Notes under the pieces: generated by a model
Told to the model about the DNA's origin: nothing
Databases searched by the model: none
Seen by the model: the letters and a program-made list of their open reading frames with translations, nothing else
From: an uncultured Erysipelotrichaceae bacterium
Lineage (GTDB): Bacteria > Bacillota_I > Bacilli_A > RFN20 > CAG-826
Assembly (NCBI GenBank): GCA_902773005.1
Contig: CACYCS010000128.1
Location: 1,252-65,251, forward strand
Direction: 5' to 3'
DNA: 64,000 bases
Part shown: positions 14,627-60,027 of the stretch, piece after piece
How positions within the stretch are numbered: the first letter of the stretch is position 1
Layout of the letters: each line of letters opens with the position of its first letter
Position numbers and translations under genes: made by a program

Positions 14627-14697
14627 TATTGAAGTTACTTCAACAACATATTGAAGTGTTATTGAAGTTGTTATTGAAGTGTAATTGAAGTAAAATC
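14627..14697 (+). repeat. Left copy of a 70-bp direct repeat flanking the second AlbA_2 gene; built from six TTGAAGT half-sites
   Basis: TATTGAAGTTACTTCAACAACATATTGAAGTGTTATTGAAGTTGTTATTGAAGTGTAATTGAAGTAAAATC. The first two half-sites form the palindrome TTGAAGTtACTTCAA. Confidence 0.95.
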
Positions 14698-16159: not shown

Positions 16160-16165
16160 GAGGCT

Positions 16166-16235
16166 TATTGAAGTTACTTCAACAACTTATTGAAGTGTTA
16201 TTGAAGTTGTTATTGAAGTGTAATTGAAGTAAATC
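16166..16235 (+). repeat. Right copy of the 70-bp direct repeat flanking the second AlbA_2 gene
   Basis: Identical to 14627-14697 except for one A/T substitution and one A indel. It starts 7 nt after the stop codon. Confidence 0.95.
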
Positions 16236-24190: not shown

Positions 24191-24865
24191 ATGAGAATCT
24201 ATCATGGATCAAATCACATCATTGAGACCCCAATCTGGAACGGTAGCAAGCCAAGGAACGATTATGGGCCTGGCTTTTACGCGACCGAAAGCATTGAACT
24301 CGCCAAGGAATGGGCTTGCGGAAGAGGGAACGATGGATTTGCGAACGCCTATGATTTCGATATGGATGGGCTGAATGTCTTGCGCCTGAACGAAGGGGAC
24401 TACAATATCCTGAATTGGCTTGCGGTTCTCGCCAAACACCGCACCTATTGGCAAAACGGGAGCATCGCTGAAGAGGCGAAAGACTATCTAGAGGCCCATT
24501 TCGGCATCGATCTATCGCCTTATGACGTCATCATCGGCTATCGGGCGGATGACTCCTATTTCTCGTTTGCCCAGGATTTTGTTTCCAACGTGATATCCCT
24601 TAGAAAGCTATCCGAGGCGATGCGCCTAGGGAAGCTAGGGGAGCAAGTCGTGCTCAAAAGCAAAGCCGCGTTCGAAAGAATCCGCTTCGTTTCATCGGAA
24701 ATCGCCCCTGCGGACATCTATTACCAAAGGAAGGTGCAACGAGATCTAGAGGCCAGAAGGCAATACCGGTTCGATGTGAAGGCGAAGAAAGACACCATCC
24801 GCGATCTATTCATGATCGACATCATGAGGGAGGGCATTGAAAATGGCGATCCGCGCTTACGATGA
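24191..24865 (+). CDS. DUF3990-family protein (copy 1)
   Basis: MRIYHGSNHIIETP...NDYGPGFYATESIELAKEWA...IIGYRADDSYF are the characteristic YHGS, GFY and GYRADDSYF blocks. Confidence 0.75.
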   Translation: MRIYHGSNHIIETPIWNGSKPRNDYGPGFYATESIELAKEWACGRGNDGFANAYDFDMDGLNVLRLNEGDYNILNWLAVLAKHRTYWQNGSIAEEAKDYLEAHFGIDLSPYDVIIGYRADDSYFSFAQDFVSNVISLRKLSEAMRLGKLGEQVVLKSKAAFERIRFVSSEIAPADIYYQRKVQRDLEARRQYRFDVKAKKDTIRDLFMIDIMREGIENGDPRLR

Positions 24866-25508
24866 AGTCTATTTGGGTTCCGCCCAAAAGATATTGGGCG
24901 AGGCGTTTGATTTCGCGATCGTCGCTTTAGGGATTGAGCCAGGCGTTTTCGCCCAAGCGTTCTGCGCTTCCGCCGCCTCCAAGCAATTTGCTCGTGGCAA
25001 TCCGCGCTACATCGCCGGCAGTAACGGATGCGAATTCGCTAGGGAAGTGCTATTGGGCGCAGGGATTTCTTTTTCCGATGCCGATGACGATATCCCACTA
25101 GACAAAAGCCCGGAATATTGGGCTGGGTGGGCGCTATGCTACTACCAGTGGCTAAGGGCTTTTAGCTTTGAAGAAATCTTCGAAGCGGTCGATCTCGTTT
25201 GGGTTATCAGCCTTTACCCCGCCTATCATGAGATGGACGTTTCGCAGTTCGTTGATCTATTGGATTCGATGCTGGAGAAGGCGCGTCTCAAGACGCGACT
25301 TGCCAAGGCGCGGCAAAACTGTGGGATGTCGCAAAGCGCGTTGTCGCGCGAAAGCGGGGTTCCGATCCGTCAGATCCAGCTTTTCGAGCAGCGGCAAAGA
25401 GACATCAGCAAAACCTCGGGAGCCACCCTTCTTCGGATGGCGAAAGCCCTCCATTGCGATATCGAGGATCTATTGGAACGTAGCGAAATTCACCCTATAG
25501 GAACATGA
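24837..25508 (+). CDS. DUF3990-partner protein: DUF3791-like N-terminal region + C-terminal XRE-type HTH (copy 1)
   Basis: EYWAGWALCYY...LYPAYHEMDVSQF is followed by ARQNCGMSQSALSRESGVPIRQIQLFEQRQRDI. It overlaps the upstream gene by 29 nt. Confidence 0.65.
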   Translation: MKMAIRAYDEVYLGSAQKILGEAFDFAIVALGIEPGVFAQAFCASAASKQFARGNPRYIAGSNGCEFAREVLLGAGISFSDADDDIPLDKSPEYWAGWALCYYQWLRAFSFEEIFEAVDLVWVISLYPAYHEMDVSQFVDLLDSMLEKARLKTRLAKARQNCGMSQSALSRESGVPIRQIQLFEQRQRDISKTSGATLLRMAKALHCDIEDLLERSEIHPIGT

Positions 25509-25879: not shown

Positions 25880-26761
25880 CTAGAAGAGCAAGCCGTTAGA
25901 GAGAATATCGAATGTCTTCGCGGTTTTATACACCGCAAACCGCAGCAATAATTTCAGTTCATGGTCTTCGATGACCTTAACTTTGCTTTGATATACCAAT
26001 CGATTCGGAATGCCTAGCACCAAGCAAAATTCCCCGTCTTTCTCGTAGGACACCTTGAGATGTTCTTTTGTCTCAATCGAGAAATAGTCGCAGACGATAT
26101 CGCCTAAAACCTCAAGGAATAGTCCATCCTCGATAAGGGCATAGGTCAATAGGACAAAGGAGGTGTTCCTATGGAAATACACCTCATCCGCCCCAAGGGC
26201 TTCCTTGATTTTCGTAATCGAATCATAAGAAGCGGAGAATAGATGCTCATTGTCTTTCGCGTAATAACGTAGTGTCGTCTCGGCAATTCCAGTGAGCGCG
26301 CTCAAGGAAGAGACGCTCAAGTTATTTTTCCTTAGAAGCAACCTCAAGACAGGATTATCTTCCTCAATCTCAAGATAACGTTCTAGAAGACGAGACTCCC
26401 CCATCTCATGGTAGGGTTCATATAAGTCGACCATCGTGGATAATGGGCAACAGAGGAACGCTCTTTTTAGGGGTATGCCAAGATTCAAGAAGATGTTCAT
26501 GTATTGAATCCCTGCCCAATAAAGCGGCCCCATATCCTCTTTTTCTTCGTCTAGATACCTGCAGCCAAAGATCTTGAACACGATATCCTCAAGATTGCTG
26601 TTCATGAATTCTTCAGTCGACCCACCCTCAAAGAAATCGAAGTTGCTTAGAAGCAATTTCGCATTCATCGCTTCTAACGAAATATGGCAAAGGTGATAGG
26701 CATTAGAAAGAAGCTTTCCGAACCTGCGCTTCAGTTTATGCGCATCGATCATCTCAATCAT
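25880..26761 (-). CDS. DUF3990-partner protein with internal HTH (copy 2)
   Basis: LYWAGIQYMN...LYEPYHEMGESRL is followed by NNLSVSSLSALTGIAETTLRYYAKDNE, plus an extra ~110-aa C-terminal domain. It overlaps DUF3990 copy 2 by 4 nt. Confidence 0.6.
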   Translation of the reverse strand: MIEMIDAHKLKRRFGKLLSNAYHLCHISLEAMNAKLLLSNFDFFEGGSTEEFMNSNLEDIVFKIFGCRYLDEEKEDMGPLYWAGIQYMNIFLNLGIPLKRAFLCCPLSTMVDLYEPYHEMGESRLLERYLEIEEDNPVLRLLLRKNNLSVSSLSALTGIAETTLRYYAKDNEHLFSASYDSITKIKEALGADEVYFHRNTSFVLLTYALIEDGLFLEVLGDIVCDYFSIETKEHLKVSYEKDGEFCLVLGIPNRLVYQSKVKVIEDHELKLLLRFAVYKTAKTFDILSNGLLF

Positions 26762-27402
26762 CGCTTGCTCTCCCTTCTAATTAAGTCGCGGAGAAAGGTA
26801 TTATCCTCCGAATCAGCAACCCGTAGCTTTCTATATTCCGCGCGGGCTTTCGCGCGGAATAAGCGATACTCATCGCTAGGTTTTACTTCCTCGTGATTTA
26901 TATAACGGATGCGAGAAAAAACGCGCTCGCTGATAAGAACCGTCTGCATCCCTAACTTCCCTAGATGCATCGCTTCCTCGAGGGATTCTAAGGAGAGGTC
27001 ATCCGCCATAAAATCAATGGAATAGTCGAAATAGCTATCGTCCGCCCTGTAGCCAACGATCACATCATATTCGGATGTGTCGATCGGGAAACGCTCCTTC
27101 AGCCAATCGATTCTCTTTTTATAAGTCGCCCGTAGTTCCTTCGAGAAGCGATGCTCCACAAGTATTGCGATCCAAGACAAGACATCCTTCTCCGTAAGGG
27201 TATTGAGATAAAGCACCTTCAGTCCATTTATGTCCACATCGTATTCCATGAGGTAACCGGTGTGGCTTGACTTCGATGCCCATAATCTTGCAGCTTCCTT
27301 GTCCTTAGTTAGATAAAAGCCCACCCCATAGTCATTCGTGGGGTTGCCCACCCCGAATACAGGCTTTAGTAGCAAACTTTCCGATCCGTAATAGAATTTC
27401 AT
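26758..27402 (-). CDS. DUF3990-family protein (copy 2)
   Basis: MKFYYGSESLLLKP...NDYGVGFYLTKDKEAARLWA...IVGYRADDSYF. Confidence 0.75.
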   Translation of the reverse strand: MKFYYGSESLLLKPVFGVGNPTNDYGVGFYLTKDKEAARLWASKSSHTGYLMEYDVDINGLKVLYLNTLTEKDVLSWIAILVEHRFSKELRATYKKRIDWLKERFPIDTSEYDVIVGYRADDSYFDYSIDFMADDLSLESLEEAMHLGKLGMQTVLISERVFSRIRYINHEEVKPSDEYRLFRAKARAEYRKLRVADSEDNTFLRDLIRRESKR

Positions 27403-29727: not shown

Positions 29728-30780
29728 TTATTCATAATGGGTTTTGTTATAGATAAGCAAAGGCACGAAACTAAATATGGATAGGAACGCGGATATGCTT
29801 AGCGCCAACAGGAATACCGAGACGCTAATCAAGATTCCGAGAACGAAGAAGAGGATCTTCATGGCGATAAGCCACATAAATCCATCGAGGTCCCACGTAA
29901 AGATGAGCCCAGGGAAACGAACCGACCAACTCGCGACGCTCATGAAGACGTCGGAGATATAACTCAAAGTGAAGATGCAATAGATCGTGGCCATGACAGC
30001 ATATCCACCTAGAATCGGGCCTCCGATCGTCCAGCCAATTCCGACGGTTTCGAAATTGACGATGCAGACGATCAATATGATGGCTAAGCTGGCGATGCCT
30101 GCGACGATCGACCAAATCAGGGGCACCTTGTCGTTGCGGCTAGTGATCTTATGGAAGATGCCGGGCTTCTTCGTATCATCCTTCTTCGGCTGTAGGGATT
30201 CCTCGATTTCCTTTGCGCGCGCTTCCATTTCAGCTTCGTGCTTCTGGAAGCATTCATCGCATACGGAAACGGTTTCCTTTGTTCCATTAGGGCTTTTGCG
30301 AAGAACGTTATGGACAACGTCATTGCCATGCAGCGTCTTTCCGCAATCGCGGCAGACGCCGATAGCCCTTCCCCCTGCGGAATCGAAGCAATTATCGCAA
30401 ACGTGAACACTCGTCTTAATTCCATTCGGGCCATCCCTTTCCACATTATGGAACGCGTCTCCTTCGTGAAGGACTTTATGGCATTCGACGCAGAATCCGA
30501 TGATTTTAGGCTCCGGCGCAGGGGCAGGCTCCTCAGATTCTTCTAGTTGCGGGGCATCATCTGACTCTTTCGCTTCTGCCTCCTCGTCATCGCTGATCAG
30601 GTATTCGATCTTGCACCCAAGCAGCTTTGCGAGTGCCCTCAAAGTAGATAGATCTGGTTCAGTGGTGTCGTTCTCCCATTTGCTTACGGTTTGAAATGTT
30701 ACGTTCAATTCATCCGCCAACGTTTTCTGGGTCAAATTGGCGTCGGTCCGTGCTTTTTTGATTCTTTGTCCAAGTGTCAT
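29728..30780 (-). CDS. Membrane-anchored XRE-family regulator: HTH + two CxxC...CxxC zinc ribbons + ~4 TM helices
   Basis: The HTH is LGQRIKKARTDANLTQKTLADELNVTFQTVSKWEN. The duplicated zinc ribbon is CVECHKVLH..VCDNCF and CRDCGKTLH..VCDECF. The C-terminal third is hydrophobic. Confidence 0.75.
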   Translation of the reverse strand: MTLGQRIKKARTDANLTQKTLADELNVTFQTVSKWENDTTEPDLSTLRALAKLLGCKIEYLISDDEEAEAKESDDAPQLEESEEPAPAPEPKIIGFCVECHKVLHEGDAFHNVERDGPNGIKTSVHVCDNCFDSAGGRAIGVCRDCGKTLHGNDVVHNVLRKSPNGTKETVSVCDECFQKHEAEMEARAKEIEESLQPKKDDTKKPGIFHKITSRNDKVPLIWSIVAGIASLAIILIVCIVNFETVGIGWTIGGPILGGYAVMATIYCIFTLSYISDVFMSVASWSVRFPGLIFTWDLDGFMWLIAMKILFFVLGILISVSVFLLALSISAFLSIFSFVPLLIYNKTHYE

Positions 30781-30873: not shown

Positions 30874-31188
30874 ACGCTCGATTCCGCCGAAAGTTTTTTG
30901 AAAAACGTAATGCTTAAAAAATTTCAAAAAGAATGATAGCCCCCCCCCAATCGAATTTCAATAAGCTAAGTCGAAACGGCGAGCTTGCGTAGCCTCCCGA
31001 ATGTATTTTTCGCCTTCTGCTTTTTTGAATGCCGCAAAACGGAGAATCGGATACACGCCTCCCCTACTTCGATATTCAACCTATTGCTTGTACTTCAATC
31101 GATACCCTTCGCAGGTCGCATTTGGGTTATTGCTTCTAATGCAACCATATATGGCCGCAGGTATTACGTGAACTTCAACCGCTGCGCC

Positions 31189-31571: not shown

Positions 31572-31690
31572 ATTCCGCTTCATTTGGTAGCAAAAACATA
31601 CAATAATCAGCGGAATACACCCGTTTTTGCATGGCATTCCGCTGAATTTGGTATAGAAAACCTACAATAATCAGCGGAATTGAATTTTAT
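31572..31690 (+). repeat. Two 45-bp elements with inverted termini ATTCCGCT...AGCGGAAT at the 3' end of ATPase paralogue 2
   Basis: Copies at 31572-31616 and 31636-31680 (39/45 identical). Copy 2 plus TGAATTTTA overlaps the stop codon at 31687-31689. Confidence 0.9.
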
Positions 31691-33257: not shown

Positions 33258-33537
33258 GTTGCGAACCAAAAGAGGCTCGCCTCAATGATTCGTCGAGGTT
33301 CAAAAAGAATCGCATACTTCCTCGCATTTAGTCTTTTCAAGCAAACGAATAACATTGAAAAGTGTCGATAAACAGGTATTTTCGACCTTTAACGAATCAT
33401 TTAACGCATCGCGCGCGTTAAAATTTTAAAATCTAACGCTCGCGATGCGTTAAAATTCAAATAAGCCTTTCATAGACCTGCCCACACAAACCTCAAAGCA
33501 AATCCTATAAGTATCAATTTTAAACGGAAAATGCCGT

Positions 33538-33609
33538 TATTTTTGACACGTATAAGGCAAATTTGGCTTATATCTATCAAAAATAAAGACAAAATGGCTC
33601 TAAAATTGA
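33538..33609 (+). repeat. Downstream copy of a 72-bp direct repeat flanking ATPase paralogue 3
   Basis: TATTTTTGACACGTATAAGGCAAATTTGGCTTATATCTATCAAAAATAAAGACAAAATGGCTCTAAAATTGA. It ends 15 nt before the gene's 3' end. Confidence 0.95.
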
Positions 33610-33624
33610 TAGATATAGGTTTAT

Positions 33625-35070
33625 TTAGCGGAATAGGTCTTCAAGGGTTATGACCTTGTCGAAATCCGAATGGTAACCGCTATAGGAGAGGCCGAAGCAA
33701 GTGATCAATATCGGCGAGACCTGACAGCGGGGATTCTTTTCCTTTACTCGTTTGATTTTGTTTTCTAGATTCAGGTGGTCAGCTTCGGATTGGCGGTAGA
33801 TGTCCTGGCGGAATTTGGCCTCGCATAGATCGATGACTTTGTCTTTCCGCTCGATAATCAGGTCGATCTGCGCGCCGGGCTTATCCCCTTCTCTTTCGAT
33901 TGAGTAAGAGAAGCGCATCCCACGGACGCCAGATACGCCTAGGGCTCTTTTCACGTTATCCAAATGCATGGCGATGAGGTTCTCAAACGCCCCTCCGACG
34001 AACTCGTTTTCCTTTTCTGAATCGAAATAATCCGTGTCGAGGGTCGTTTTGTTCTTCCCAAAGCGCATGTAGAATCGCACGAATGGATCGCTGAGCTTGT
34101 ACCTCGCTTGCTTCTTAGATTCGCCATAAGGGACGTAACGAACGATGAAATTCCCTTCCTCCAATGAGTCAAAAACCCGAGAAAACGCTGCACCATCGGC
34201 TTTTTTAAGTCCTTCGACGATTTGTTTCCTCGTGTATCCCTCGTTACGTTTCCCGATGTATTCCGCCACCGCTTTCGCAAGCTTATCGCTATCGAAGGAA
34301 GACCGGAATAGCCTGCCGTATTCCTTCGCTAGCTTCGCATCTCGGGCGAAAAGCATCCGGTTGACGAACTCGGGAAGCGATTCGCCGCGATGGAGGAAAT
34401 TCAAATAGAAGGGAATCCCGCCGAAGACCATGTATATCCTAGCGACGTCAAGGCGACTCATCTCCATCCCCTTGTTCCGGAAATAGGATTCGGTCTCCCT
34501 AAGCGAGAAAGGCGAGAGGTGGATCGGGTTGGTGACGCGGTCATAAAGCCCGCCGGTTGAATGGATCACCTCATCCAGCATCCATGAAGTCGATGAGCCA
34601 GCGACGATTACCAAAGTATTGGGAATGACAGATGATGCGGTGTTGATGAACCACGAGAAAGCTTCGATGAAGCGTGATTTTCTTGTGTCAAGCCAAGGAA
34701 GCTCGTCGATGAAGATCACCTTCTTCCCGTCGCCTTGTTTCCCTTTTAGAAACCCTAGAAGCGCGGTGAATGCCTCGACCCAGTTCGCGAAGGCCTTCTT
34801 CTGCGGATATCCCCATAAAAGCAAAGAGGCGCGGAATGCCTGAAGTTGCATCTCTAGTGGGCTTTTCTGCCCGTTTCTAGGCTCCTCATCCTCTTCGTCA
34901 GAGGTCGACAAAGCAACGTGATGGAAGCAAAGCCGTTCGCGGAATAGACTCGAGACCAGATACGTTTTCCCGACCCTTCTCCTTCCATAGATCGCCGCGA
35001 AGCGGAACCCGTCCCCGCGATAGGCGTCTTCCAGTTCAGCGATCTCTTTTTCTCTTCCGACGATTTCCAT
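33625..35070 (-). CDS. AAA+ ATPase with C-terminal E..D..ExK block; paralogue 3 of 5
   Basis: Blocks are YGRRRVGKTYL, VIFIDELPWLDT, IVAGSSTSW, GGLYDR and GGIPFYL. The C-terminus is AFENLIAMH...AQIDLIIERKDKVIDLCEAKF. Confidence 0.8.
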   Translation of the reverse strand: MEIVGREKEIAELEDAYRGDGFRFAAIYGRRRVGKTYLVSSLFRERLCFHHVALSTSDEEDEEPRNGQKSPLEMQLQAFRASLLLWGYPQKKAFANWVEAFTALLGFLKGKQGDGKKVIFIDELPWLDTRKSRFIEAFSWFINTASSVIPNTLVIVAGSSTSWMLDEVIHSTGGLYDRVTNPIHLSPFSLRETESYFRNKGMEMSRLDVARIYMVFGGIPFYLNFLHRGESLPEFVNRMLFARDAKLAKEYGRLFRSSFDSDKLAKAVAEYIGKRNEGYTRKQIVEGLKKADGAAFSRVFDSLEEGNFIVRYVPYGESKKQARYKLSDPFVRFYMRFGKNKTTLDTDYFDSEKENEFVGGAFENLIAMHLDNVKRALGVSGVRGMRFSYSIEREGDKPGAQIDLIIERKDKVIDLCEAKFRQDIYRQSEADHLNLENKIKRVKEKNPRCQVSPILITCFGLSYSGYHSDFDKVITLEDLFR

Positions 35071-35125
35071 GAGCTACCCCTCTTTCTAATTACTATATTA
35101 GTCAAAAATAAAAGGAATTTCGACT

Positions 35126-35197
35126 TATTTTTGACACTTATAAGGCAAATTTGGCTTATATCTATCAAAAATAAAGGCAAAATGGCTCGAAAATTGA
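35126..35197 (+). repeat. Upstream copy of the 72-bp direct repeat flanking ATPase paralogue 3
   Basis: 69/72 identical to 33538-33609. A partial third start (TTGACACTTATAAGG) follows at 35194-35208. Confidence 0.95.
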
Positions 35198-35647
35198 CAC
35201 TTATAAGGTATTCGAGTCGTATTACAACCGACATCCCGCGGTCAATTACCTATCGTTGCAATTGCGTTGCCGGATAACGTCAATCGAAATAGCAATGTTT
35301 CATGATGTCTCCTTTTGATTGGGCTCACCCCTGCTTCATTTTGGCGAATCGCCCGTCCGCAAAATGCGCGATGTCCCTTCTCGCGGTTTTCTTTCGCGCC
35401 GGGAAACGTCCCCCTCGGATTAAAAGCGCATAATGAGATAAAGCTTCGACCCATCCCTCGAAAAAGGGAAACGTCAAAGGGGCCCATAATGCCAAAAAAT
35501 CGCTAAGAAAACCGAAATTGCATATCCCAGTTTCCTATTGTAACCGCTTTCATTCCCTTGTTTTAAAAAACAAGAAATCTTTTTCTTTATTTTTTTCGTT
35601 TCGCATGTAACATACCGGCATTCCAAGTGCGTAACGCGCACGGAGGT

Positions 35648-38275
35648 ATGCATATGAAGGAATTCGAGCGTTTCAAGAAAAAACTCCTCAGGGAGCACAT
35701 CCTCAAGGCAGTGCTCGTAGGACTCGGCGTCGGCTTATTCGGTGCAGGGCTAGCGGTACTGTTATTCCGCCTCGTCGCTCCTAGCGCCGCTGTCGTTGCA
35801 GGGATCGTCGCGGGAGTCGTGTTCGCCGGACTCGCATTCGCCCTTTATTTCCGCGGGGCCCGTCCTAGCGACAAGGAAATCGCCCTCCGCCTCGACAAGG
35901 ATCTCGGCCTCCGCGAGAAGACCGCGACCATGGTCGAGTTCGAAGGCCAGGACAACCTGATCCTCGAGAAGCAGCGCGAAGACGCGAGAAGTAGCCTCGC
36001 GGCCAAGCCCACCGCCGCATTGAAGTTCAACGTCTCGGTCCTCGGCGTCATCGCACTCGTTATCGGAGGAGGCGGATTCGCAAGCTCGTTGCTTCTTCCC
36101 GTCCACCAGCTGAATCATGATGATCAGCCGGGCGAGAATTCCTCCAATAACTGGGATAGCATCGTCGATAGCATCGTCAAATCCGTCGATAACGACATCG
36201 AGAATAACGATAGCATCAACAAGAGCCTCGGCGACGAGATCCAATCCATCCTCGACGAGCTTCAGAATAGCCTCGAAGGCAATACCAACGTCGAAGAACG
36301 TTCTTCGCTCGTCGATGAAGCCAAATCGAAGATCGATGAGGCCGTCGATAACGCGAACACCAAAGAAGAGATCGGCGAAGCGCTGAAGCACCAAGAAGAC
36401 CAGGCCCTCCAAGACCTTGGCCAAGCCCTTATCGATGGCGATAACCAGGCGGTCAACGACGCCCTTCAAGAGCTCATGGACGAATTCAACGCGATCGATG
36501 ATCCCCAAGAGCTCGCCGAGAAGATGCATGACATCGCCGACCAGATTCGCGACGCGCTAGAAGAAGCCAAAGAGAACGGGGTCGATCCTAACGATGGCCT
36601 CTACAAATCCCTCGAAAACCTCGCGAACCGCCTCGACGGCCAAGCCGAGAAGCTAGAGAACTCGGAGCAAGAGCAGCAAGAGCAGCAGGTCATCTTGACC
36701 TACACCACTTCCTATGCTGGCGACGTCTATCTCCATGACGTGAGCTACACCTCTTACGACGGCAAGGATTGGTCCGCCCCGATCGCCTATAATACACCTG
36801 CAGGCGCGAGCAATCCGCTCTATTACACCGCCGATAAGCTCGAGAACGTCGGCATCACCACCTATTCGATGGATTTGGACTGGGATGCGGATTATCTCGC
36901 CGCGCTCGCTCAATATGGATATTCGCCGCGCAACCTCCTCCCGCTATACGCAACCACTGAGTTTGCCGCCGACGCAACCGATGCCTATCTGACCGAGACC
37001 TTCGCGGCCCATCAGGAATATCACTTCCACCCCTACGCCCTCACTGCCGCTACCGCCGCCCAGCTAGTGGCCGCGTCCTACTCGAAATCCGCGACCACCT
37101 CAGCCGAGGTAAACTACCGTAGCTTCGTAAGGAGCAACTACCTCACCGTCTCCGCGGATGAGAAGGCCTATTTCGATACGGTCATCGCTAGCGAAAACCT
37201 CACAAATTCGATCGACGGCATGCTTAGCGCGACAGACTACATCATGAACGCAGCCGAGTACGACATCGAATACGTCGAAGGCGGCTCGAAGACCTATGAT
37301 GGCGACGACCATATCCTCGACTTCCTGCAGGACAAGAAGGCTGGCGTCTGCGTCCAGTTCGCGGGCGCGCTAACCTTATTATTAAGAAGCTTAGGCGTCC
37401 CTGCCCGCTACACCGAGGGCTGGCAATCCGTCGCGAATGGCGACATCACCAAGCCCGTCGAAGTCACCGAAATCGGCCACGCTTGGACCGAGGCCTACAT
37501 CGATAACATCGGCTGGGTCGTCCTTGACGCCACCCCTGCCCAAAATGGGGAAGGCCAAGGCGAAGAGCAACCAGGCGAACAGCAGTCCGGCGAAGAGCAA
37601 TCCGGCGGACAGCAATCCGGTGGCGAGCAGCAATCGGGCGGACAGCAGCAATCCGGCCAGCAAGGCTCGCAGAACCAAGACGCGGAAGATGCAAAAGACG
37701 CCGCGCAAGAAGCGATCGATAGCGCCCAGCAGCAGATGAATTCCGAAGTCGACCAGCAGAACGCGAACTCGCAAGCTGGCGAGCAGGCAAAATCGGCGAT
37801 GGACGAAATGGTCCAGCCCTCCGATTCCGGCGAAGAATCTAGCGCAGGATCTGGCCAAGGGTCAGGACAAGGCTCCCCGACTTCAGGCGAAGGGTCCGGA
37901 CAAGGATCCGGCGAAGGCTCGGGACAAGGGTCCGGCGAAGGATCTGGTGAACAGCCTGGGTCTGGCGAAGGATCCGGTGAAGGCTCTGGCCAAGGGTCTG
38001 GAGAAGGTTCAGGCTCTGGCTCGGGATCCGGCTCTGGCGAAGGTCAGGGCGAAGGCGAAGGTGAAGGAGAGGGCGCTGGCTCCGGACAAGCTGGCGAACA
38101 CCACACCGACACCATCTACACCAAGGATGGCACCGCCGAATACGGCGACGTCATCAACGATTACCAAGGCGATGCCGCCAAGGACGCGGACGAGGCCGGA
38201 GACGATGACCTCACCGAGACCCAAGGCGATTACTTCAATAACCTATACGGCGAAGGCGGAGGAAAAGGAAACTGA
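35648..38275 (+). CDS. Membrane-anchored transglutaminase-like protein with long acidic coiled region and G/S/E/Q low-complexity tail
   Basis: Two N-terminal TM helices. The transglutaminase core is [13 protein letters not shown] (Cys), IGHAWTEAY (His) and VVLDATP (Asp). The start is ATG 35648 or 35654, after GGAGG. Confidence 0.75.
37847..38090 (+). repeat. Degenerate tandem 12/18-bp repeats encoding (GEGSGQGS)n inside the transglutaminase gene
   Basis: Reiterated GGCGAAGGNTCNGGNCAAGGNTCN units. A second Q/G/S/E tract ([11 protein letters not shown]) lies at about 37553-37680. Confidence 0.85.
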
Positions 38276-42068: not shown

Positions 42069-44715
42069 TATCAAAAATCCATGGCTTGGCCTCATCGCCA
42101 TCCCGATCATCATCCTCGTGATCGTGTTTTTCTTCCGCATCCCCAAGCAAAAACGGAAGTTCCTCAAGAACAAATTGTCCCTTGGCCTCCACATCCTTAT
42201 GGCGGTCACATTGTCCCTTGCCTTCATGGACATCCGCTTCCTCCACTCGGGCAAAGACACCGAGCTCTACATCCTCGCCGATTGCAGCGACTCCGAAAAA
42301 GTCTCTAGCGACCGCATCGATTCCCTCATCAAAGAGGTTTACGACAAACATCTCGTGAACACCAAGATCGGGGTCATCGCCTTTGCCAAAGACTATCGCG
42401 TCGTCACCCCGATCGGAACTAGCTACGAAGGCATCTCCAAGATCTTCGACGACGAAAGTTTCGATGGCTCCGCCACGAACCTCGAGTCGGCCCTCAATTA
42501 CGTCGAAACCCTCTATAGCGAGGAATCCGTCCACCGCATGCTCATCATAAGCGACGGCGTCGAAACCGACGGCAACGCGGTGGATTCGCTCGATAAGCTC
42601 CTCCATAACAACGTGAGCATCGATTGCGTCTACTTGACCGAGGAAGGCGAAGACGAGATCGCTGTCACCGACGTCTCTTACGTCGAGAAGGCATTCTATG
42701 GCCGCAAACAAGAGGCGAAAGTCTCGATCCGCAGCCGCAAAGAAGCCCAGATCTTGGCGCGGCTCACCCGCAATGGCGAGAGGGTCGCCGACTTGCCTAG
42801 CCAAGTCAATCGCGGTCTGACCGTCTTGACCTTCAGCCTTCCTAGCGACGAGGTCGGGACCTTCGAATACAAGATCGAGCTCCTGAATGAAGATGGCTCC
42901 CCGATTCCCGAGGAAAAAGACCTCTTCGCGGAGAATAACCGCAAATCCTTCACTCAGGAGATCCACGATGACTTCAAGGTGCTACTCATCGACTCCGGCG
43001 AAGCCGATCGCCGCGCGATCGACGCGCTGAAGCTCTTCACAAGCAATACCGACATCACCGAGTATCTCTATACCGCCACGAACATCCCCTACTCCCTCGA
43101 GCAGCTCATCCAATTCGACGAGATCATCCTCTCCGACGTCAATCTCTCGATCATGAGCCACTACGAGGAATTCGTCGAGAACCTCCGCCTCGCGGTCTCG
43201 GTATATGGCAAGACGCTCATGAATTACGGCGCCACCAATATCGGCGACGCCTCAAGCGACGCGATGTCGATGTTCGCCGACATGCTCCCCGTCCAATACC
43301 ATTCTGACGATAAGCAAGCGGTCATCCTGAACATTGACGTCTCGGGCTCGATGGATGGCGACCGCCTCGTCAAGGCCAAGCAAGGCGCGATCGCCTGCGT
43401 CGATATCCTCGACGAAGACGATTACATCGGAATCGTGAGCTTCTCTGACGAAGGCATCGTCGTGCAGCCGCTCACCTCGGTCAAAAACCGTGCCACAATC
43501 GTTGCGAACATCAACTCGATGGAGACGATCGGCGGCACCAACATGGCGCCGGGCTTCGACCGCTGCACCGAGCTTCTCCGCAACGCCGACTTCGAATATA
43601 AGCAAGTCATCACCCTCTCTGACGGCGACCCGTTCGACGATCCTTCCGCCCTTAGGACCCAGGTCACCCAGATGGCGCAGCAAAACATCATCTCCTCGTT
43701 CATCAACATTCAGAATAAGTCGGGCGAAGCGCTTCTCAAGAGCCTCGCTAGCGCAGGCAACGGACGCTACTACTACGCCGAATCCGCCGCATCCCTTGTC
43801 AAGGTCATGCTTAGCTCCGTGACCGATGACGTCGCTAACACCGCGATCCAAGGCCGCTCCCCCATCCAGATCAGGGAAACTGACGATCCATCCTTAGAGG
43901 GCATCGATTCTCTCCCGGACCTCATGGGCTACAACTATTGCCGCATCAAGCAAGACGCCACCACCGTCCTCACCACCCAATACACCGCCAAGGAGCAAGA
44001 TGGCGAGGCCGTAGGCGTAGCCGCCGTCCCGATCTATGCCTATTGGTCGTTCGGCCGGGGGAAGGTCAGTTCCTTCACTAGCGCCATCGGCTCCTCTTGG
44101 ACCGCCGGCATCCGCTCGATCGATAGCGGCAAACGCTTCTTCCAGAACGCGGCCAACGAGATGCTCCCTGAATCCGCCTCCAACGATCAGATCACCTTCG
44201 AATACGCGCTTAACGGCACCACCGTGCTAGCGAAGATCAACGCAAACGACGGCGATACTGCAGCCGAGGTCAAATTGACCCTTACCTCCCCAGAAGGCGT
44301 GGAAACCGAGTATACGCCATACTTCGATGGCTCCGCCTATAGCGTCCTCCTCGATACCCCAACCGTCGGGGACTACAAGGCCCACATCGTCTATTCCCAC
44401 CACGTCACCTGGAACAATGGTGAGGTCCACATGGAGAAGCTCGGCGAGATCGATTACCCCGTCCACTTCGATTACTCGAAGGAATATAACCTCTTCGAGC
44501 AGCATGATGGGGAGTTGCTCTATCGCCTCTCTAGGTCAACTGGCTCCACAAGCGTCAACGAGATCAACTACGAGACCCTCTCAAGCGAAATCGAGTTCAG
44601 GAGCTACCGCTCCACCATGATGTGGTTACTCTTCGCAAGCTTAGCGATCTTCTTGGTAGACATCTTCATCCGCAAGAGCGAATTCAAGAAGAAGAAGCCG
44701 CTAGAAACGGCCTAA
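42055..44715 (+). CDS. Large BatB-like protein with two vWA domains and terminal TM anchors
   Basis: Likely start is MNNIDIKNPWLGLIAIPIIILVIVFF at 42055. The vWA motifs are LYILADCSDS and ILNIDVSGSMDG..GGTNM. A C-terminal TM is present. It overlaps the upstream gene by 14 nt. Confidence 0.75.
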   Translation: MNNIDIKNPWLGLIAIPIIILVIVFFFRIPKQKRKFLKNKLSLGLHILMAVTLSLAFMDIRFLHSGKDTELYILADCSDSEKVSSDRIDSLIKEVYDKHLVNTKIGVIAFAKDYRVVTPIGTSYEGISKIFDDESFDGSATNLESALNYVETLYSEESVHRMLIISDGVETDGNAVDSLDKLLHNNVSIDCVYLTEEGEDEIAVTDVSYVEKAFYGRKQEAKVSIRSRKEAQILARLTRNGERVADLPSQVNRGLTVLTFSLPSDEVGTFEYKIELLNEDGSPIPEEKDLFAENNRKSFTQEIHDDFKVLLIDSGEADRRAIDALKLFTSNTDITEYLYTATNIPYSLEQLIQFDEIILSDVNLSIMSHYEEFVENLRLAVSVYGKTLMNYGATNIGDASSDAMSMFADMLPVQYHSDDKQAVILNIDVSGSMDGDRLVKAKQGAIACVDILDEDDYIGIVSFSDEGIVVQPLTSVKNRATIVANINSMETIGGTNMAPGFDRCTELLRNADFEYKQVITLSDGDPFDDPSALRTQVTQMAQQNIISSFINIQNKSGEALLKSLASAGNGRYYYAESAASLVKVMLSSVTDDVANTAIQGRSPIQIRETDDPSLEGIDSLPDLMGYNYCRIKQDATTVLTTQYTAKEQDGEAVGVAAVPIYAYWSFGRGKVSSFTSAIGSSWTAGIRSIDSGKRFFQNAANEMLPESASNDQITFEYALNGTTVLAKINANDGDTAAEVKLTLTSPEGVETEYTPYFDGSAYSVLLDTPTVGDYKAHIVYSHHVTWNNGEVHMEKLGEIDYPVHFDYSKEYNLFEQHDGELLYRLSRSTGSTSVNEINYETLSSEIEFRSYRSTMMWLLFASLAIFLVDIFIRKSEFKKKKPLETA

Positions 44716-44726
44716 TCATCCTACTT

Positions 44727-44759
44727 AGCCGTGGCAAAACCGCCACGGCTTTTCCTTTT
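44727..44759 (+). terminator. Rho-independent terminator of the MoxR/vWA operon
   Basis: Stem AGCCGTGGC (44727-44735) pairs with GCCACGGCT (44742-44750), followed by TTTTCCTTTT. Confidence 0.85.
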
Positions 44760-44953
44760 CCTAGATCCTTATTATTTATATAGGCGCTTAGCCAATTAGA
44801 TATGGGCCATAGCCTATCGATTCCATCCGCCTATACGCGAACGTATGTGAATTGATGTGGCTGTATGTGGTTTTCCCCACTTGCTTAGTAGCGAAACTCG
44901 GTCGCGCGGCGCCTTTCCTTTCACCCTGCGCCACACGGCATTGAATTTAGGTG

Positions 44954-46381
44954 TCAGGCCATTAGATCGGATAAAGTAATCACAAAGGGATAATCGCTGC
45001 TATAGGCGCCTTGGTTAAGCCCGAAGGACGTGATAAGCACGGGGTAAATGCCGCCTTTCTTTTTGATATATGGCGATAGAGAAGCGATTTTGCGCTCCAG
45101 ATCCAAATGACTTTTCTCGCTGCAGGAATACTCTTTCGAATAGAATTTCATCTCGCAGAGGTTAAGCCCCCCATCCTTCCTTTTGATGATCAAATCGATT
45201 TGCGCCCCAGGTTTGTCTTCATCCCCTGCCACGGTATAGAAAGTCGCTTCTGTTTCAATCCCTCCGATGGATAGTTTGCTCTCGATGCGATCAAGATGGT
45301 TGAAGCAGAGATTTTCGAAACTGAATCCGATGGGGGAATTCGGCGAGGTGGCGAAATGGTGCTTTTTCTCCTCGTTGCCCTTGACTCGCTTGAGATAGAA
45401 GAAGCAAAACGGATCGATGAGTTTGTAATGGACTTCCTTTTTGCTTTTCCCAAACGGCACATAACTTAAAAGGAAATCGCTCCTTTCAAGCGCTTTGAGC
45501 TTCTGAAAGAAAGCTCCATTGGCATCAAGTTTCAATTTCGATGCGATCTCATTCGCCGTATACCCGAGGTTTCTATTGGAGAGCAATTCTATGATGGATT
45601 TCATCGTATCGGGATCGGAGAATTGCGAAGTGAAAAGATCCTCGAATTCGTCTTCTAGCTCGCGGTCAGGCCCAAATAGGAGGAAATCGATGTTCTGCTT
45701 TGCGGAGAAACCGGCCTGGAAATAGTCCAAATAATACGGGATGCCGCCTAAGGCCATATAGGACAAAGCAACTTCGTAAGGAGAATAATGGCAGTTCTTA
45801 TATTCCAGGAATTTGCCACATTCTCCTAGAGTAAATGGGCTTAGGCGTATTTTCCTAGTGATTCTCCGGTAGAGTCCTTTGTTTCCATGGATGAGCTTAT
45901 CGCTGATCCAAGAGCTGGCGCTTCCGCAAACGACGAGAATCATATTATCCAAATGGCAAAGATAGCCATTGTAAAAATCGGAAAAGGCGCTCAGGAATCC
46001 TGATTTCGGCGTGTCCATCCATGGCATTTCATCGATGAAGACGACATGATGCCTATTGGGGTCAGTATGGTTTAGAAGCTGCTCTAGTCGCGAGAAGGCT
46101 TCATTCCAACTCTTGAGGCGCCCTCTTTGCTTCTTAGCACCATATCGGAGCAAGCTCCTTTCGAAGGCGTTCAGCTGCCTTTGCTTCTTATTGACCGCTA
46201 AGGCGCTATCGTCTAACGGCTCTGAGCCAGTATGGCTGAAAGCGAAATGGCCCTTGTAAGTCTCGTCGATCAAAAACGTCTTGCCAACTCTTCTCCTGCC
46301 GTACACGGCGACGAATTCGCACTTCTCGCTGCTCAACAAGGAAGTCAGCAGCCTGACTTCTTTTTCTCTGCCGATAATCAT
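44954..46381 (-). CDS. AAA+ ATPase with C-terminal E..D..ExK block; paralogue 4 of 5
   Basis: Blocks are YGRRRVGKTFL, VVFIDEMPWMDT, VVCGSASSW, KGLYRR and GGIPYYL. The C-terminus is SFENLCFNH...AQIDLIIKRKDGGLNLCEMKF. Confidence 0.8.
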   Translation of the reverse strand: MIIGREKEVRLLTSLLSSEKCEFVAVYGRRRVGKTFLIDETYKGHFAFSHTGSEPLDDSALAVNKKQRQLNAFERSLLRYGAKKQRGRLKSWNEAFSRLEQLLNHTDPNRHHVVFIDEMPWMDTPKSGFLSAFSDFYNGYLCHLDNMILVVCGSASSWISDKLIHGNKGLYRRITRKIRLSPFTLGECGKFLEYKNCHYSPYEVALSYMALGGIPYYLDYFQAGFSAKQNIDFLLFGPDRELEDEFEDLFTSQFSDPDTMKSIIELLSNRNLGYTANEIASKLKLDANGAFFQKLKALERSDFLLSYVPFGKSKKEVHYKLIDPFCFFYLKRVKGNEEKKHHFATSPNSPIGFSFENLCFNHLDRIESKLSIGGIETEATFYTVAGDEDKPGAQIDLIIKRKDGGLNLCEMKFYSKEYSCSEKSHLDLERKIASLSPYIKKKGGIYPVLITSFGLNQGAYSSDYPFVITLSDLMA

Positions 46382-46433
46382 TGTTATGCTCCTTTTCCAC
46401 GCTTATTATGACATGTCATAAATTTATAATCCA

Positions 46434-46545
46434 CGATAATTAGCGTTATTCAAGCATTTTTGGTCGGATAACGCTGTTTATCCAGCGATTTCAGCCCGAT
46501 AATTAGCGTTATTCAAGCATTTTTGGTTGGATAACGCAGTTTATC
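46434..46545 (+). repeat. Two 49-bp direct repeats (63-bp period), each with inverted AGCGTTAT / ATAACGC arms, upstream of ATPase paralogue 4
   Basis: CGATAATTAGCGTTATTCAAGCATTTTTGGT(C/T)GGATAACGC(T/A)GTTTATC at 46434-46482 and 46497-46545. Confidence 0.95.
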
Positions 46546-46835
46546 TGCCATATTGAACATTGGCCGCAACAAACATGATGAAACCAAGGAACGCGCTATG
46601 CCTATGCACCGTTTTTTCGATACGCGCAAATGGGATTGCCTCGTTTGAATCGAATGGCTAGGCGTTGCTCCATAAATAGCGGAGAGCAAAATAAAATCGA
46701 GTAGGGGCTATTTATTAATTTGGTGCCCAGCCTGTACCTATCTAACGTCCTTGTTTTTATAGCGGACAAAACGCGTCCGCGCGCCTAGCCTAGGGGTTCC
46801 GCTATGCTAATGAATGATGAACAAGGAGATGCAAA

Positions 46836-48122
46836 ATGAACCTAGGAAAAGAGCCTGTGCCCATTGGAGTCAGGGATTTTAGATTGATGGCCAGTAGCCC
46901 TCATTACATCGACAAAACCGGATTTATCGCAGACGTTTGCAAGTGCCCAGGATGCGTAATCGCTTACCATAGGCCGGACGGATTCGGCAAAAGCTTGGCC
47001 CTATCGATGCTAGAATGCTTTTTCTCGATGGACGAAGATAGCCGGAGCTATTTCAAAGGCAAAGCCATTGCGAAGCTAAATGGAGGGGTCTGCATGGAGG
47101 AAATGAATGCCTATCCCACGATCCATTTGGACCTAAGCGCGCTGGATGCGCCCGATTACCCATCCATGATGGAATACGTCGCAAATATGATGGCTTCCGC
47201 TTACGAAAAGGCAAACGTCTCGTCCTTTAAAAGCATTTGGGAATACGATAGGAAAAGTATCAAAGCGATTCTAAGCAAAGCCGCTAATGAGGTCGAACTG
47301 GAATTTTCTTTGCAACGCCTCAGCATGTATTTGAAGGAAGAAACCGGCAAAAGGGCAGTGATCCTGATCGATGGCTATGACGCGCCTGTCATAGCGGGTG
47401 CGAAACACGGCTACGCCAAAGAGGCGGGCGGATTCTTCCAGGCGTTCTTCGGCGCGGCGCTAAAGGGGAACGAGGCTATGGAGCGCGGCGTATTGGTCGG
47501 AGTCGTTCCAATCATCTACGCCTCGGATTTCTCGGGCTTCAATAACCTTATCTATAGGTTTGGATACGATGACATAGGAGAAGAAAGATTCGCCTTCACG
47601 CGTAAAGAAACGATGGATTATCTTCGTTTATACGATAAGAATTTCGAAGAAAAAATGGTTCAAGAATGGTATGGGGGATACCGTTTGTCCAACCAAGAAA
47701 GTTTCTGCCCACGTTCGATTCTTGCCTTTGCCAATGGCGATTTTGAATTCAAATCATATAAGGAATCATCGAGTATTGACCCTCTTTTGCTAAGGAACGA
47801 AGACCCTGCCGAAGTCGTCCAATGCGTAGAGGGATTGATTTCAGGAAAACCGACAGTTTGCCTCACACCAACGACGATAGGGCCAGACTCTATAGCGGAA
47901 CAGCCAAAGTTCAGGGAGTTATCGCTATATTCTGGATACTTCACCGTCGACGATATTGATACGCGCGAGTATCATCTCTTCACGCGCATCAAAATACCCA
48001 ATATCGAATCAAGAAAAGCACTCGAAAAGAACGTTCTTGGCGCACTTATGATTACTCCCCAAACGGCATCGAAAGCTAAGCGCCAAAAACCATCTTCAAA
48101 AGCAACGAAAAAAGCTGCTTAG
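46836..48122 (+). CDS. Predicted AAA-ATPase (PF09820-like) lacking the usual C-terminal PD-(D/E)xK_9 domain
   Basis: PIGVRDFRLMASSPHYIDKTGFI...YHRPDGFGKSLALSMLECFFS is the family N-terminal signature. It ends in a K/A-rich tail with no ExK block. Confidence 0.7.
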   Translation: MNLGKEPVPIGVRDFRLMASSPHYIDKTGFIADVCKCPGCVIAYHRPDGFGKSLALSMLECFFSMDEDSRSYFKGKAIAKLNGGVCMEEMNAYPTIHLDLSALDAPDYPSMMEYVANMMASAYEKANVSSFKSIWEYDRKSIKAILSKAANEVELEFSLQRLSMYLKEETGKRAVILIDGYDAPVIAGAKHGYAKEAGGFFQAFFGAALKGNEAMERGVLVGVVPIIYASDFSGFNNLIYRFGYDDIGEERFAFTRKETMDYLRLYDKNFEEKMVQEWYGGYRLSNQESFCPRSILAFANGDFEFKSYKESSSIDPLLLRNEDPAEVVQCVEGLISGKPTVCLTPTTIGPDSIAEQPKFRELSLYSGYFTVDDIDTREYHLFTRIKIPNIESRKALEKNVLGALMITPQTASKAKRQKPSSKATKKAA

Positions 48123-48234
48123 AAATGCTTAAAAACGCCTCAGATTAAGGGCTCTTTTTCGTATAGAAATAACTCTTGTTTGGCAACCGAAAAATGAGTT
48201 GAGCAATATTCATTAATGCGTTTGTTGTGACTAT

Positions 48235-48264
48235 GAAAAAGCACCGACTACGCGGTGCTTTTTC
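48235..48264. terminator. Bidirectional terminator between convergent genes
   Basis: Stem GAAAAAGCACCG (48235-48246) pairs with CGGTGCTTTTTC (48253-48264). Confidence 0.8.
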
Positions 48265-48282
48265 ATATATTGCTTAATCGAC

Positions 48283-49311
48283 TTAGTTCGCAACGCAAGT
48301 GACGCGGAGGAACGGGGTCTTCGGAGTGCTTGAATAATACGAATCCGAAGTCGATCTGCCATAGAGGGCAGCCTTGACCGTATAGCCATCGCTGAAGGTC
48401 TTGGAGAAGACCGTGGCAGAATAGGAATTAGTGTAATACCCGCTTCCGCTAGTGATGGTCTCGCTCGTCTCGGTCCACTTCTTTGAGCGCGGGAATGCGC
48501 TTCTGGCAGCGGCCAAGATTTCATTTTGGTAGGTATCCCAGCCTTGTCCAACGCCTTGGATCTCGACGGCGTTGCCATTAGTTAGCGTGATAAGGGTCGC
48601 TTCTTCGGCCAAGGTGCCAAGGTAGACATAGGGAAGCATATGCGGAGATTCGACGCCAATTGAAGCGAGAACCTGAACGGTCGCGTTGCGCCACGCGCCA
48701 TCCGCGGGGATGATGAACGGCTCATTGTAATAGACGTCGACCTGTGGATTCGTCATCTTGTCGTTCTCATCGTAGATCCCATAGAAATCGACTTTGATGC
48801 CAAGATCGGGTTCTTCGGCGTGCAACTTGACTTTTTCGCGGTCGAACGCGACGTTCCAGCCCGCTTTTTGATAGGTGAGCTTCGCAGCGCCTGCGAGGGC
48901 GTTATCAAATCCGCCGGTCGAGATGATGCTAAGATGAGCTTCTTCGGTCACATAGCCGCCGTAATTGTAATCATAAGAGGAAGAAGCCTCGATCCAGGTT
49001 GCAAGGAGGCGACCAGGCAAATCGATGAAGGGGATCGCGTGGCCACCTAGATGAGGAACCATCACGTCGAGGATATCCTGCGTCCAGCCGATCGTGTAAT
49101 CGATCGAAACCTCAGGCTCCGAGGAAGATTCTGCCGGGGCGGGATTGCTTTCGATGGGCATCGAATCGCTTTTAGTGGGCTCAGAACTGACGCTCGTCGT
49201 AGAGGAATCTTGGGCGGGAGCGCTACTAGCGCTATTCTCGCCATTCCCTCCGCAAGCGGCCAAAAGCAATGCCGATGACAGCAACAATAATCCGTGAACG
49301 CTCTTTTTCAT
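48283..49311 (-). CDS. Lipoprotein of unknown function
   Basis: MKKSVHGLLLLSSALLLAACGGNG is a lipobox signal peptide. It is followed by an S/P/E-rich linker. Confidence 0.7.
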   Translation of the reverse strand: MKKSVHGLLLLSSALLLAACGGNGENSASSAPAQDSSTTSVSSEPTKSDSMPIESNPAPAESSSEPEVSIDYTIGWTQDILDVMVPHLGGHAIPFIDLPGRLLATWIEASSSYDYNYGGYVTEEAHLSIISTGGFDNALAGAAKLTYQKAGWNVAFDREKVKLHAEEPDLGIKVDFYGIYDENDKMTNPQVDVYYNEPFIIPADGAWRNATVQVLASIGVESPHMLPYVYLGTLAEEATLITLTNGNAVEIQGVGQGWDTYQNEILAAARSAFPRSKKWTETSETITSGSGYYTNSYSATVFSKTFSDGYTVKAALYGRSTSDSYYSSTPKTPFLRVTCVAN

Positions 49312-60017: not shown

Positions 60018-60027
60018 ATCCTCGCCA

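Follow-up and report, generated by a model that had tools for sequence, protein, structure and literature searches.

Palindromic repeat arrays on both sides of a PDC-S27 ATPase gene look like gene-specific regulatory protein-binding sites

Why should a single ATPase gene lie between two long and almost identical direct repeats? The question is raised by ATPase paralogue 3 (ATP3; 33625-35070, minus strand, an open reading frame (ORF) of 481 aa), which is carried on a 64,000-nucleotide stretch of DNA from an uncultured Erysipelotrichaceae bacterium (contig CACYCS010000128.1 of assembly GCA_902773005.1, positions 1,252 to 65,251). We refer to this whole stretch as the window and count all positions from its first letter. 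An initial annotation had noticed the repeats and proposed that homologous recombination between them would excise the gene cleanly. Judged from sequence comparison, the repeats look like regulatory protein-binding arrays rather than passive recombination substrates, and there is, in our estimation, about an even chance that they are cognate operator sites through which the encoded ATPase regulates its own gene.

The repeats and the gene between them

The two 72-nt copies lie at 33538-33609 (copy A, downstream of the gene) and 35126-35197 (copy B, upstream), neither being assigned to a strand, and direct reading and a repeat finder agree that they are identical at 69 of 72 positions, with the three mismatches leaving identity blocks of 12, 38, 11 and 8 nt. 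The gene is therefore bracketed by long direct repeats as first described, with copy A ending 15 nt from the stop codon and copy B starting 55 nt (rather than 56) from the ATG. Each copy also contains the 20-nt near-palindrome recognised earlier, which proves to be the centre of a longer imperfect palindrome of 50 nt whose 25-nt arms are 84% complementary and have no spacer between them. In copy B this palindrome runs from TTATTTTTGA to TCAAAAATAA, the first arm being laid out as TTATTTTTGA-CACT-TATAAGGCAAA and the second as TTTGGCTTATA-TCTA-TCAAAAATAA. Because the 72-mer is palindromic, copies A and B are also mutual inverted repeats. A 46-nt core pattern allowed up to three mismatches has only two sites in the window, which are copies A and B, where 100 shuffles gave an expectation of 0. 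The partial third start TTGACACTTATAAGG at 35194-35208 is likewise real, with three matches to the word against 0.07 expected, and it stands exactly 63 nt from its other occurrence at 35131.

The array on each side of the gene consists of three units in this exact 63-nt register, with the 72-nt copies as the intact central units. Array B (35088-35222, minus strand) lies upstream of the ATG, and array A (33500-33634, minus strand) is a paralogous copy of the entire three-unit array and takes in the gene's final codons and stop, so that a weaker homology extends beyond the 72 nt over a module of about 135 nt on each side. Of the proximal, degenerate unit in array B the left arm survives, TCAAAAATAA at 35102, ahead of the ribosome-binding site (RBS) and ATG; its counterpart in array A likewise retains one arm, TCAATTTTAA at 33514. 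The distal partial units open with TTGACAC at 35194 in array B, where the half-unit occupies 35194-35208, and with TTGATAG at 33606 in array A. The cores of the two arrays are 96% identical, and the adjoining 40-nt flanks match at 14/40 and 22/40 positions (about 35-55%). The units of array B span 18 to 152 nt upstream of the ATG, which places repeated dyad-symmetric sites near the putative promoter, and no canonical promoter or terminator was found inside either array. Unit spacings in the window (63, 63, 63 and 64 nt) correspond to whole helical turns, 63 bp being six turns.

The gene itself is, by its sequence, an ordinary member of the known candidate defence family PDC-S27, described as a single-gene candidate phage defence family in which an ATPase is fused to a PD-(D/E)XK domain, not yet validated (PMC12988326), and as very common in archaea and the rumen (PMC12988326, PMC13356809). 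The hidden Markov model for PDC-S27 in PADLOC-DB v2 (PDLC04984) matches it with an E value of 4.1e-145, aligning residues 2-480 of 481 with profile positions 3-473 of 474, and the domain order is AAA+ ATPase_2, winged helix and C-terminal PD-(D/E)xK-like domain. Pfam places ATPase_2 (E 8e-16), AAA_14 and AAA_16 within residues 1-224, and both the Walker A motif (GRRRVGKT) and the Walker B motif (hhhhDE, here FIDELPW) show no variation among 60 sequences. Over the C-terminal half Pfam yields no match even at E 10, and the assignment of a putative PD-(D/E)xK nuclease therefore rests on motif, predicted fold and literature: D403, E417 and K419 are invariant in the 60-homologue alignment, the pattern D403...E417-x-K419 falls on predicted strands 400-408 and 412-419, and published accounts describe the domain likewise (PMC12988326; PMC3424549 for DUF234/COG1672). 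An AlphaFold2 model with a predicted local distance difference test score (pLDDT) of 91.6 comprises an AAA+ core, a winged helix at about residues 262-326 (helix-helix-helix-strand-strand) and a C-terminal alpha/beta domain. Foldseek finds its closest solved folds in the archaeal Walker ATPase 2qen, MalT, Apaf-1, many ORC/Cdc6 subunits, Avs3/4 and Card1, and the structures 2fna and 2qen also match at the level of sequence. Ratios of non-synonymous to synonymous divergence (pN/pS) of 0.10 and 0.09 against two related strains indicate that ATP3 is under purifying selection and is, by evolutionary criteria, functional. In one rumen metatranscriptome, at low depth, RNA contigs cover 34239-35069 and end at the start codon.

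Excision, strain differences and block inheritance

Clean excision of the gene is unsupported by the sequences of related strains (96-97% identical) and of metagenome runs from cattle and sheep rumen, since every strain sequence that reaches the locus retains the gene. The window's arrangement is found in L081 and L082, the gene with both arrays is present in L110, and the contigs of runs X4, X5 and X8 that carry the gene extend from within copy A to within copy B. The contigs of eight DNA runs showed no joint between the copies, which is a weak test because contigs built at k=31 cannot span a 72-nt repeat and break inside it, so that even a moderately frequent deletion allele could escape. 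One candidate joint, 32521>34685, was rejected, as it matched by 26 nt on one side and connected non-homologous positions of two paralogues, which points to a foreign contig sharing a motif. A search for solo copies was equally negative: the 22-nt core of the 72-mer has no match in 185,579 species genomes, and the single contig containing it in the JGI metagenomes is the same locus in a 96% strain. In the window and in these collections the 72-mer is thus confined to this locus, and a dispersed repeat could be dismissed on that scope, which did not take in the rest of the source genome; in metagenomes the unitig depth of the 72-mer is only 2-3.3x that of the gene. Given that the longest perfect identity between the copies is 38 nt, RecA-type excision would be possible but inefficient. 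Excision between the copies is, then, mechanistically possible and unsupported by the data at hand.

Comparison of related strains does reveal polymorphism at the locus, but its breakpoints, at 33460 and 35221/35222, lie outside the 72-mers. At 35221/35222, exactly the distal edge of array B, L110 and X5 have an insertion of 2.0-2.2 kb (L110:7610-9848, which carries the gene for a 668-aa LRR_5/LRR_8 protein; the X5 contig is longer by 2,009 nt). There are no repeats at the ends of this insertion in L110, and recombination between the 72-mers was rejected as its origin on that ground. Beyond 33460 L110 runs into wholly unrelated sequence, where the window has a 55-nt palindrome (33400-33454) and ATPase paralogue 2 (ATP2); at L110:11611-11696 the window palindrome is replaced by a direct repeat pair of that strain's own, GACAGGTyrAAGTTCAGTA, about 34 nt apart. 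The neighbouring cassette leftwards of 33460 thus appears to have been swapped between strains. The block made up of array, gene and array (33460-35222, minus strand) is 97% conserved in L110 (9849-11610, equivalent to window 35222-33460), with both flanks differing. Because array A stays with ATP3 in L110 while the neighbour is replaced, it belongs to ATP3, and the possibility that copy A is an operator of the next paralogue, ATP2, could be rejected. By this comparison the block is inherited as a unit whose neighbours can change. In L083, L106 and L107 (about 75% nucleotide identity) the adjacent transglutaminase-MoxR-Bat operon is kept and these ATPase genes are absent. Among named genomes the MoxR homologues nearest to that of the window, at 88%, come from MAGs labelled 'Bacilli bacterium', and the source is placed as a rumen bacterium. 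The transglutaminase-like gene (35627-38275) has long coding repeats of 12 and 15 nt at 37559-38034 that are rich in Gly/Ser/Glu/Gln, and its product varies between 672 and 882 aa among P0121, P0261 and the window.

Divergence of the two cores does not follow that of their flanks. Seven copies of the core have been sequenced, and each difference among them occurs in a single copy, with no position consistently separating A-type from B-type, and the array flanks do differ consistently between A and B, which means that the cores were identical when the strains split though the flanks were already far apart. Between strains we count 8 differences in 360 positions of core, 14 in 295 of array flank and 52 in 1212 of other intergenic DNA, and the synonymous divergence (pS) of ATP3 is 8-13%. 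Of five strain-specific changes that separate the window from L081, four fall outside the symmetric arms. This pattern fits some constraint together with gene conversion, or else copying confined to the unit; it does not fit a simple, very recent duplication of the 135-nt module.

Recurrence across the family and the window

Similar arrangements recur in PDC-S27 well beyond this genome. We assembled 80 homologous loci, 34-42% identical to ATP3, from the genomes of species in GTDB, and these span Bacteroidales, Lachnospiraceae and other Clostridia, Treponema, Succinivibrionaceae, Proteobacteria, Bacilli and Eggerthellaceae. Bracketing, defined as a direct repeat scoring at least 22, was found at 12 of 73 PDC-S27 loci as opposed to 1 of 165 real neighbouring genes (p 3e-6), and at 0 of 119 shifted pseudo-genes used as a control. 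For upstream elements the comparison was with neighbouring genes that have at least 150 nt of intergenic space (n=122), and both tandem repeats (scoring at least 18; 16/71 loci versus 7/122, p 0.0009) and palindromes (16/71 versus 11/122, p 0.016) were more frequent before PDC-S27 genes. Two tandem periods predominate, 53-54 nt (seven loci, unrelated in sequence) and 62 nt (two loci), or about five and six turns of B-DNA. A typical unit in the family has conserved outer arms of 9-17 nt and a variable centre, and the homologue P0004 (46% identical) has the same arrangement.

The clearest view of what is kept in such an array comes from an orthologue set (alignment A5) of four Bacteroidales species, represented by L023, L032, L035 and L051, whose proteins are 65-86% identical. 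The arms TTATTTTGCGCGAA and TTCGCGCAAAATA are invariant here, and the loop and the DNA further upstream can no longer be aligned. The left arm recurs in a second unit, 53 nt further downstream, which passes into a TAnnTTTG promoter box just before the start codon. From the alignment, this footprint is the signature of a sequence-specific dimeric or oligomeric binder, and it is unlike what the requirement for a hairpin alone would leave, because the sequence of the half-sites is kept and not just their complementarity. In L035 (Segatella copri) CGCG has changed to CTCG/CGAG in all three half-sites together, and the other three species keep CGCG, making this a candidate case of co-evolution between a protein and its operator.

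At other bracketed loci the repeated unit has sharp edges and is 97-100% identical between its copies (59/59 at L011, 73/75 at L005 and 56/57 at L019, which is flanked by an LD-carboxypeptidase gene and a hypB-like gene); its equivalent in the array is the distal, full unit rather than the unit nearest the promoter. The class is mixed, with the brackets of L010, L022 and L060 resembling ordinary terminators (a GC-stem followed by a T-run). Many homologues are assembled on contigs of gene length plus about 150 nt. One such sequence, a 1,632-nt Logan contig (L109) of P0002, a 53% homologue, starts and ends with the same 24-nt word, TTGACGTTAAAATGCATTTTTCGC. This closest distinct relative is therefore either another bracketed gene, with a repeat unrelated in sequence, or else present in that sample as a tandem or circular form.

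Within the window each ATPase_2 and AlbA_2 gene has its own, unrelated repeat set alongside, usually within about 50 nt upstream of the gene start and with periods of 63-64 nt, and bracketing by direct repeats was found for 3 of the 40 window genes tested, all three being ATPase_2 or AlbA_2 genes. Two palindrome-ended units of 43 nt at 18615/18678, 63 nt apart, end 54 nt before the start of the ATPase gene at 18774, and two 49-nt units at 46434/46497, also 63 nt apart, end 53 nt before the start of the ATPase gene at 46381 (minus strand). The ATPase gene at 60283-61755 is accompanied by three 57-nt near-perfect palindromes (CATAATCCCCCAAAAGTCGA...TCGACTTTTGGGGGATTATAA), two upstream (60025-60081 and 60189-60245) and one on the stop codon (61750-61806), the arm ends of which contain TATAAT. 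The AlbA_2/HATPase_c_4 gene (14717-16159) stands between 69-nt blocks at 14626-14694 and 16165-16233 that are 68/69 identical and sharp-edged, each built of ATTGAAGT iterons spaced at 11-12 nt (one helical turn) plus one inverted copy. Directly upstream of an ORF at 1514-2872 (minus strand), which matches PADLOC PDC-S01 with an E value of 2e-84, there are four tandem units of 32-33 nt with a TACCAAAATTTGCATTTT core (2895-3024).

The ATPase genes occur on both strands, scattered among housekeeping genes, and no recombinase, integrase or transposase domain was detected in the 29 window ORFs scanned. One of them, ATP4 (44954-46381, minus strand), shares a 3.6-kb islet at 44698-48300 with an AAA-ATPase_like (PF09820) gene (46836-48122), and is enclosed by the terminators of housekeeping genes that converge on the islet. 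The islet is absent from L106 and L107, whose empty sites have no repeat at their edges, and in L083 its place is taken by a PIN/PhdYeFM pair and an AP-endonuclease-like gene. Just past the stop of ATP2 there is a tandem pair of 45-nt palindrome-ended units (31572-31680; 31572/31636, period 64), and beyond it weak tblastn remnants of ATPase residues of about 171-231 (30913-31068, minus strand; E 0.3-1.1); this array may be the operator-like array of a decayed ATPase paralogue. AlbA_2 gene 1 (9512-10975) is followed downstream by three units of about 107-118 nt (10998-11311), each with three or four tandem 11-nt GGAGTCGCCAA repeats. Two DUF3990 genes occur elsewhere, in 24191-25508 and 25880-27402. 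An HTH_3 protein is encoded after one of them and an unannotated ORF of 293 aa lies before the other, and they may be paired modules of the toxin-antitoxin type.

Candidate roles of the arrays and known systems

The observations to be explained are the anatomy of the arrays, their phasing, their recurrence across the family, the conservation of half-sites in orthologues and the inheritance of the block. In the account that we favour, held with the even confidence stated at the outset, the gene product (an ORC/Cdc6- and STAND-like AAA+ protein with a winged helix and a PD-(D/E)xK-like nuclease) would bind its own palindromic sites. Binding at array B, whose proximal unit runs into the promoter/RBS region, would lead to autoregulation, the simplest sign of which would be repression of a potentially toxic nuclease. 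Array A, past the stop codon, would be an auxiliary site of the same module and might, purely by way of conjecture, support looping between ATP-oligomerised protein at both ends. Which way the regulation works, what array A does and which protein binds are all inferred, the last from the winged-helix/ORC-like fold of the model and the co-inheritance of the arrays in cis. A binder encoded in cis is suggested because the palindromes of paralogues differ, the elements travel with the gene and the half-sites co-vary, and ATP3 is the only gene in the block.

Several points weigh against this account. That the ATPase is the binder is itself a deduction, and there is no convincing sigma-70 promoter candidate between array B and the ATG. 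Arrays are detectable in only about 37% of family members by a crude ungapped method, and the cores are only about two-fold more constrained than the intergenic DNA around them, a difference that is not significant alone. Regulation by itself does not explain cores that were identical at the strain split beside flanks already about 45% diverged, nor the sharp edges and near-identity of the bracket cores at other loci; cores so alike between flanks so different require gene conversion or a copying process. In addition, the unrelated AlbA_2 family shows the same bracketing, which means that the phenomenon is not tied to the PDC-S27 nuclease.

Those bracket cores are what lends some weight to an explanation by cassette recombination, which we nevertheless regard as unlikely. 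Here the palindromic unit would be att-like, and a circular cassette of unit plus gene would integrate at, or be excised from, a resident unit by site-specific or homologous recombination, possibly aided by the encoded nuclease-ATPase, leaving identical cores between unrelated flanks. This is the excision idea of the initial annotation at its strongest. Bracketing specific to the family, cores that resemble att cores beside flanks at background identity, genes standing singly among housekeeping genes and in strain-variable islets, the many contigs of little more than gene length with the L109 word at both ends, and cores without shared A-versus-B differences at the strain split would all follow. 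However, no deletion allele, solo site or second genomic context was found, the strain breakpoints miss the 72-mers, the scanned ORFs include no integrase or transposase, the empty sites of the ATP4 islet lack edge repeats and 84% of family members have no bracket. The paralogues in the source genome are, moreover, only about 40% identical to one another, which argues against recent multiplication, and a target with the same 57-75-nt unit would have to pre-exist wherever a cassette integrates. It is also conceivable, and quite unlikely in our view, that the downstream array is a by-product without function: a single duplication would have given a second regulatory module, left over, for example, when the second gene of a tandem pair was lost or replaced, and the inert downstream copy would have had its core kept alike by gene conversion. 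The homology over the whole 135-nt array with diverged flanks is as expected of an old duplication, the singleton differences in the cores agree with it, and the array next to weak ATPase remnants past ATP2 suggests that arrays can outlive genes. Yet independent lineages, and an unrelated family too, have arrived at a single clean unit just past the stop, which would not be expected of a chance remnant; array A was retained with its gene when the neighbour was replaced, and the cores evolve no faster than the surrounding intergenic DNA, perhaps half as fast.

The remaining explanations also assign a function to the palindromes. Sites for a separate regulator acting in trans, such as a nearby helix-turn-helix (HTH) protein like that encoded at 29728-30780, seem very unlikely. 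Defence genes are, according to the literature, often under separate HTH or WYL repressors, and an HTH_3 gene does lie 1 kb beyond ATP2, but one common host factor does not fit because each paralogue in a genome has a different palindrome. Furthermore, the elements accompany the gene through phyla in which it keeps no common neighbour, and the half-sites co-vary within a locus. Least probable of all, in our judgement, is a role in nucleic-acid structure, with the palindromes acting as hairpins or cruciforms, for instance by terminating transcription upstream to insulate the gene and ending its own transcript downstream, or by stabilising mRNA as stem-loops. Both strands of the palindromes do fold better than shuffles (z -2.3 to -4.2), copy A is suitably close to the stop codon, and terminator-like brackets exist at L010, L022 and L060. 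Against this, the stem at the 72-mer is AU-rich, has no T-run after it and is not called as a terminator; several paralogues pair only their 9-14-nt outer arms around non-complementary centres of 16-27 nt, which makes for poor hairpins and good paired half-sites; orthologues keep the sequence of half-sites and not complementarity alone; helical phasing has no meaning for RNA; and the RNA contigs, at their low depth, stop at 35069, short of the upstream palindrome. No Rfam family matches the 72-mer, and a known RNA family was rejected, the lone match being a sub-threshold one to rliD at a different palindrome.

In the literature searched we found no mention of private repeat arrays or of bracketing in PDC-S27. 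What appears, within that literature, to be new is the occurrence of such arrays as a conserved feature of the family, and also of AlbA_2-type and PDC-S01 genes in the source genome, together with long units phased at five or six helical turns and a second copy just beyond the stop in a sixth of family members. Few predicted defence loci are commoner in rumen and archaeal genomes than PDC-S27 and PDC-S01 (PMC13356809, PMC12988326), and a gene-specific phased palindrome array would provide a concrete DNA ligand with which an abundant uncharacterised family becomes directly testable. The sequence patterns suggest that PDC-S27 effectors may be sequence-specific DNA binders that control themselves, and the second copy past the stop codon bears on how single-gene islets are regulated or moved. 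For annotation, the arrays explain why PDC-S27 genes are frequently assembled as isolated contigs of about 1.6 kb. A bolder and rather unlikely proposition is that PDC-S27 proteins, and by the same pattern those of AlbA_2-type and PDC-S01 genes, are hard-wired to private flanking addresses, either as self-addressed guards or as self-mobilising cassette machinery. A guard would be bound at its own sites, and its release or activation from them would trigger the nuclease. Cassette machinery would instead synapse and cut at the palindromic ends, which would be a new kind of self-mobilising single-gene cassette and would explain both the bracket cores of about 16% of loci, with their sharp edges and near-identity, and the scatter among housekeeping genes.

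The arrays share individual features with several known systems. Like repetitive extragenic palindromic (REP) sequences, bacterial interspersed mosaic elements (BIME) or miniature inverted-repeat transposable elements (MITE) they are extragenic imperfect palindromes, but the 72-mer is specific to its locus, with two copies in 64 kb and none among the species genomes searched. Integron cassettes (attC) and att-flanked elements mobilisable in cis are also single, promoter-proximal genes between imperfect palindromes, and some PDC-S27 relatives have the identical cores and unrelated flanks of att sites. The 72-mer, however, is without the R''/R' core (RYYYAAC...GTTRRRY) of attC, its palindrome ending in TTATTTTTGA and TCAAAAATAA, the window ORFs scanned include no integrase, the genes are scattered in both orientations, and ATP3-type genes have tandem phased units upstream rather than one downstream site. 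In the C-protein operators of restriction-modification systems, in AbiEi and in YefM-YoeB, a potentially toxic gene is likewise controlled from palindromic operators that come in pairs, at the promoter or just upstream of it, and form cooperative, helically phased arrays; such paired operators before toxin or defence genes are well known, as in YefM-YoeB (PMC1802561). ATP3 differs from these in that effector and presumed binder are one fusion protein, the units, at 45-63 nt, are much longer and a second array lies beyond the stop. The archaeal Orc1/Cdc6 proteins and their origin recognition boxes (ORB) resemble the ATP3 locus both in the AAA+/winged-helix fold and in having long dyad-symmetric repeated sites beside their own gene. 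From the structures of Orc1 on ORB DNA, a 50-nt palindrome could fit two monomers bound head-to-head. The ATP3 locus departs from that system in showing no signs of an origin (an AT-rich unwinding element or a skew switch), in the nuclease-like C-terminus of its product, and in belonging to a family with many paralogues per genome, each of which has its own sites.

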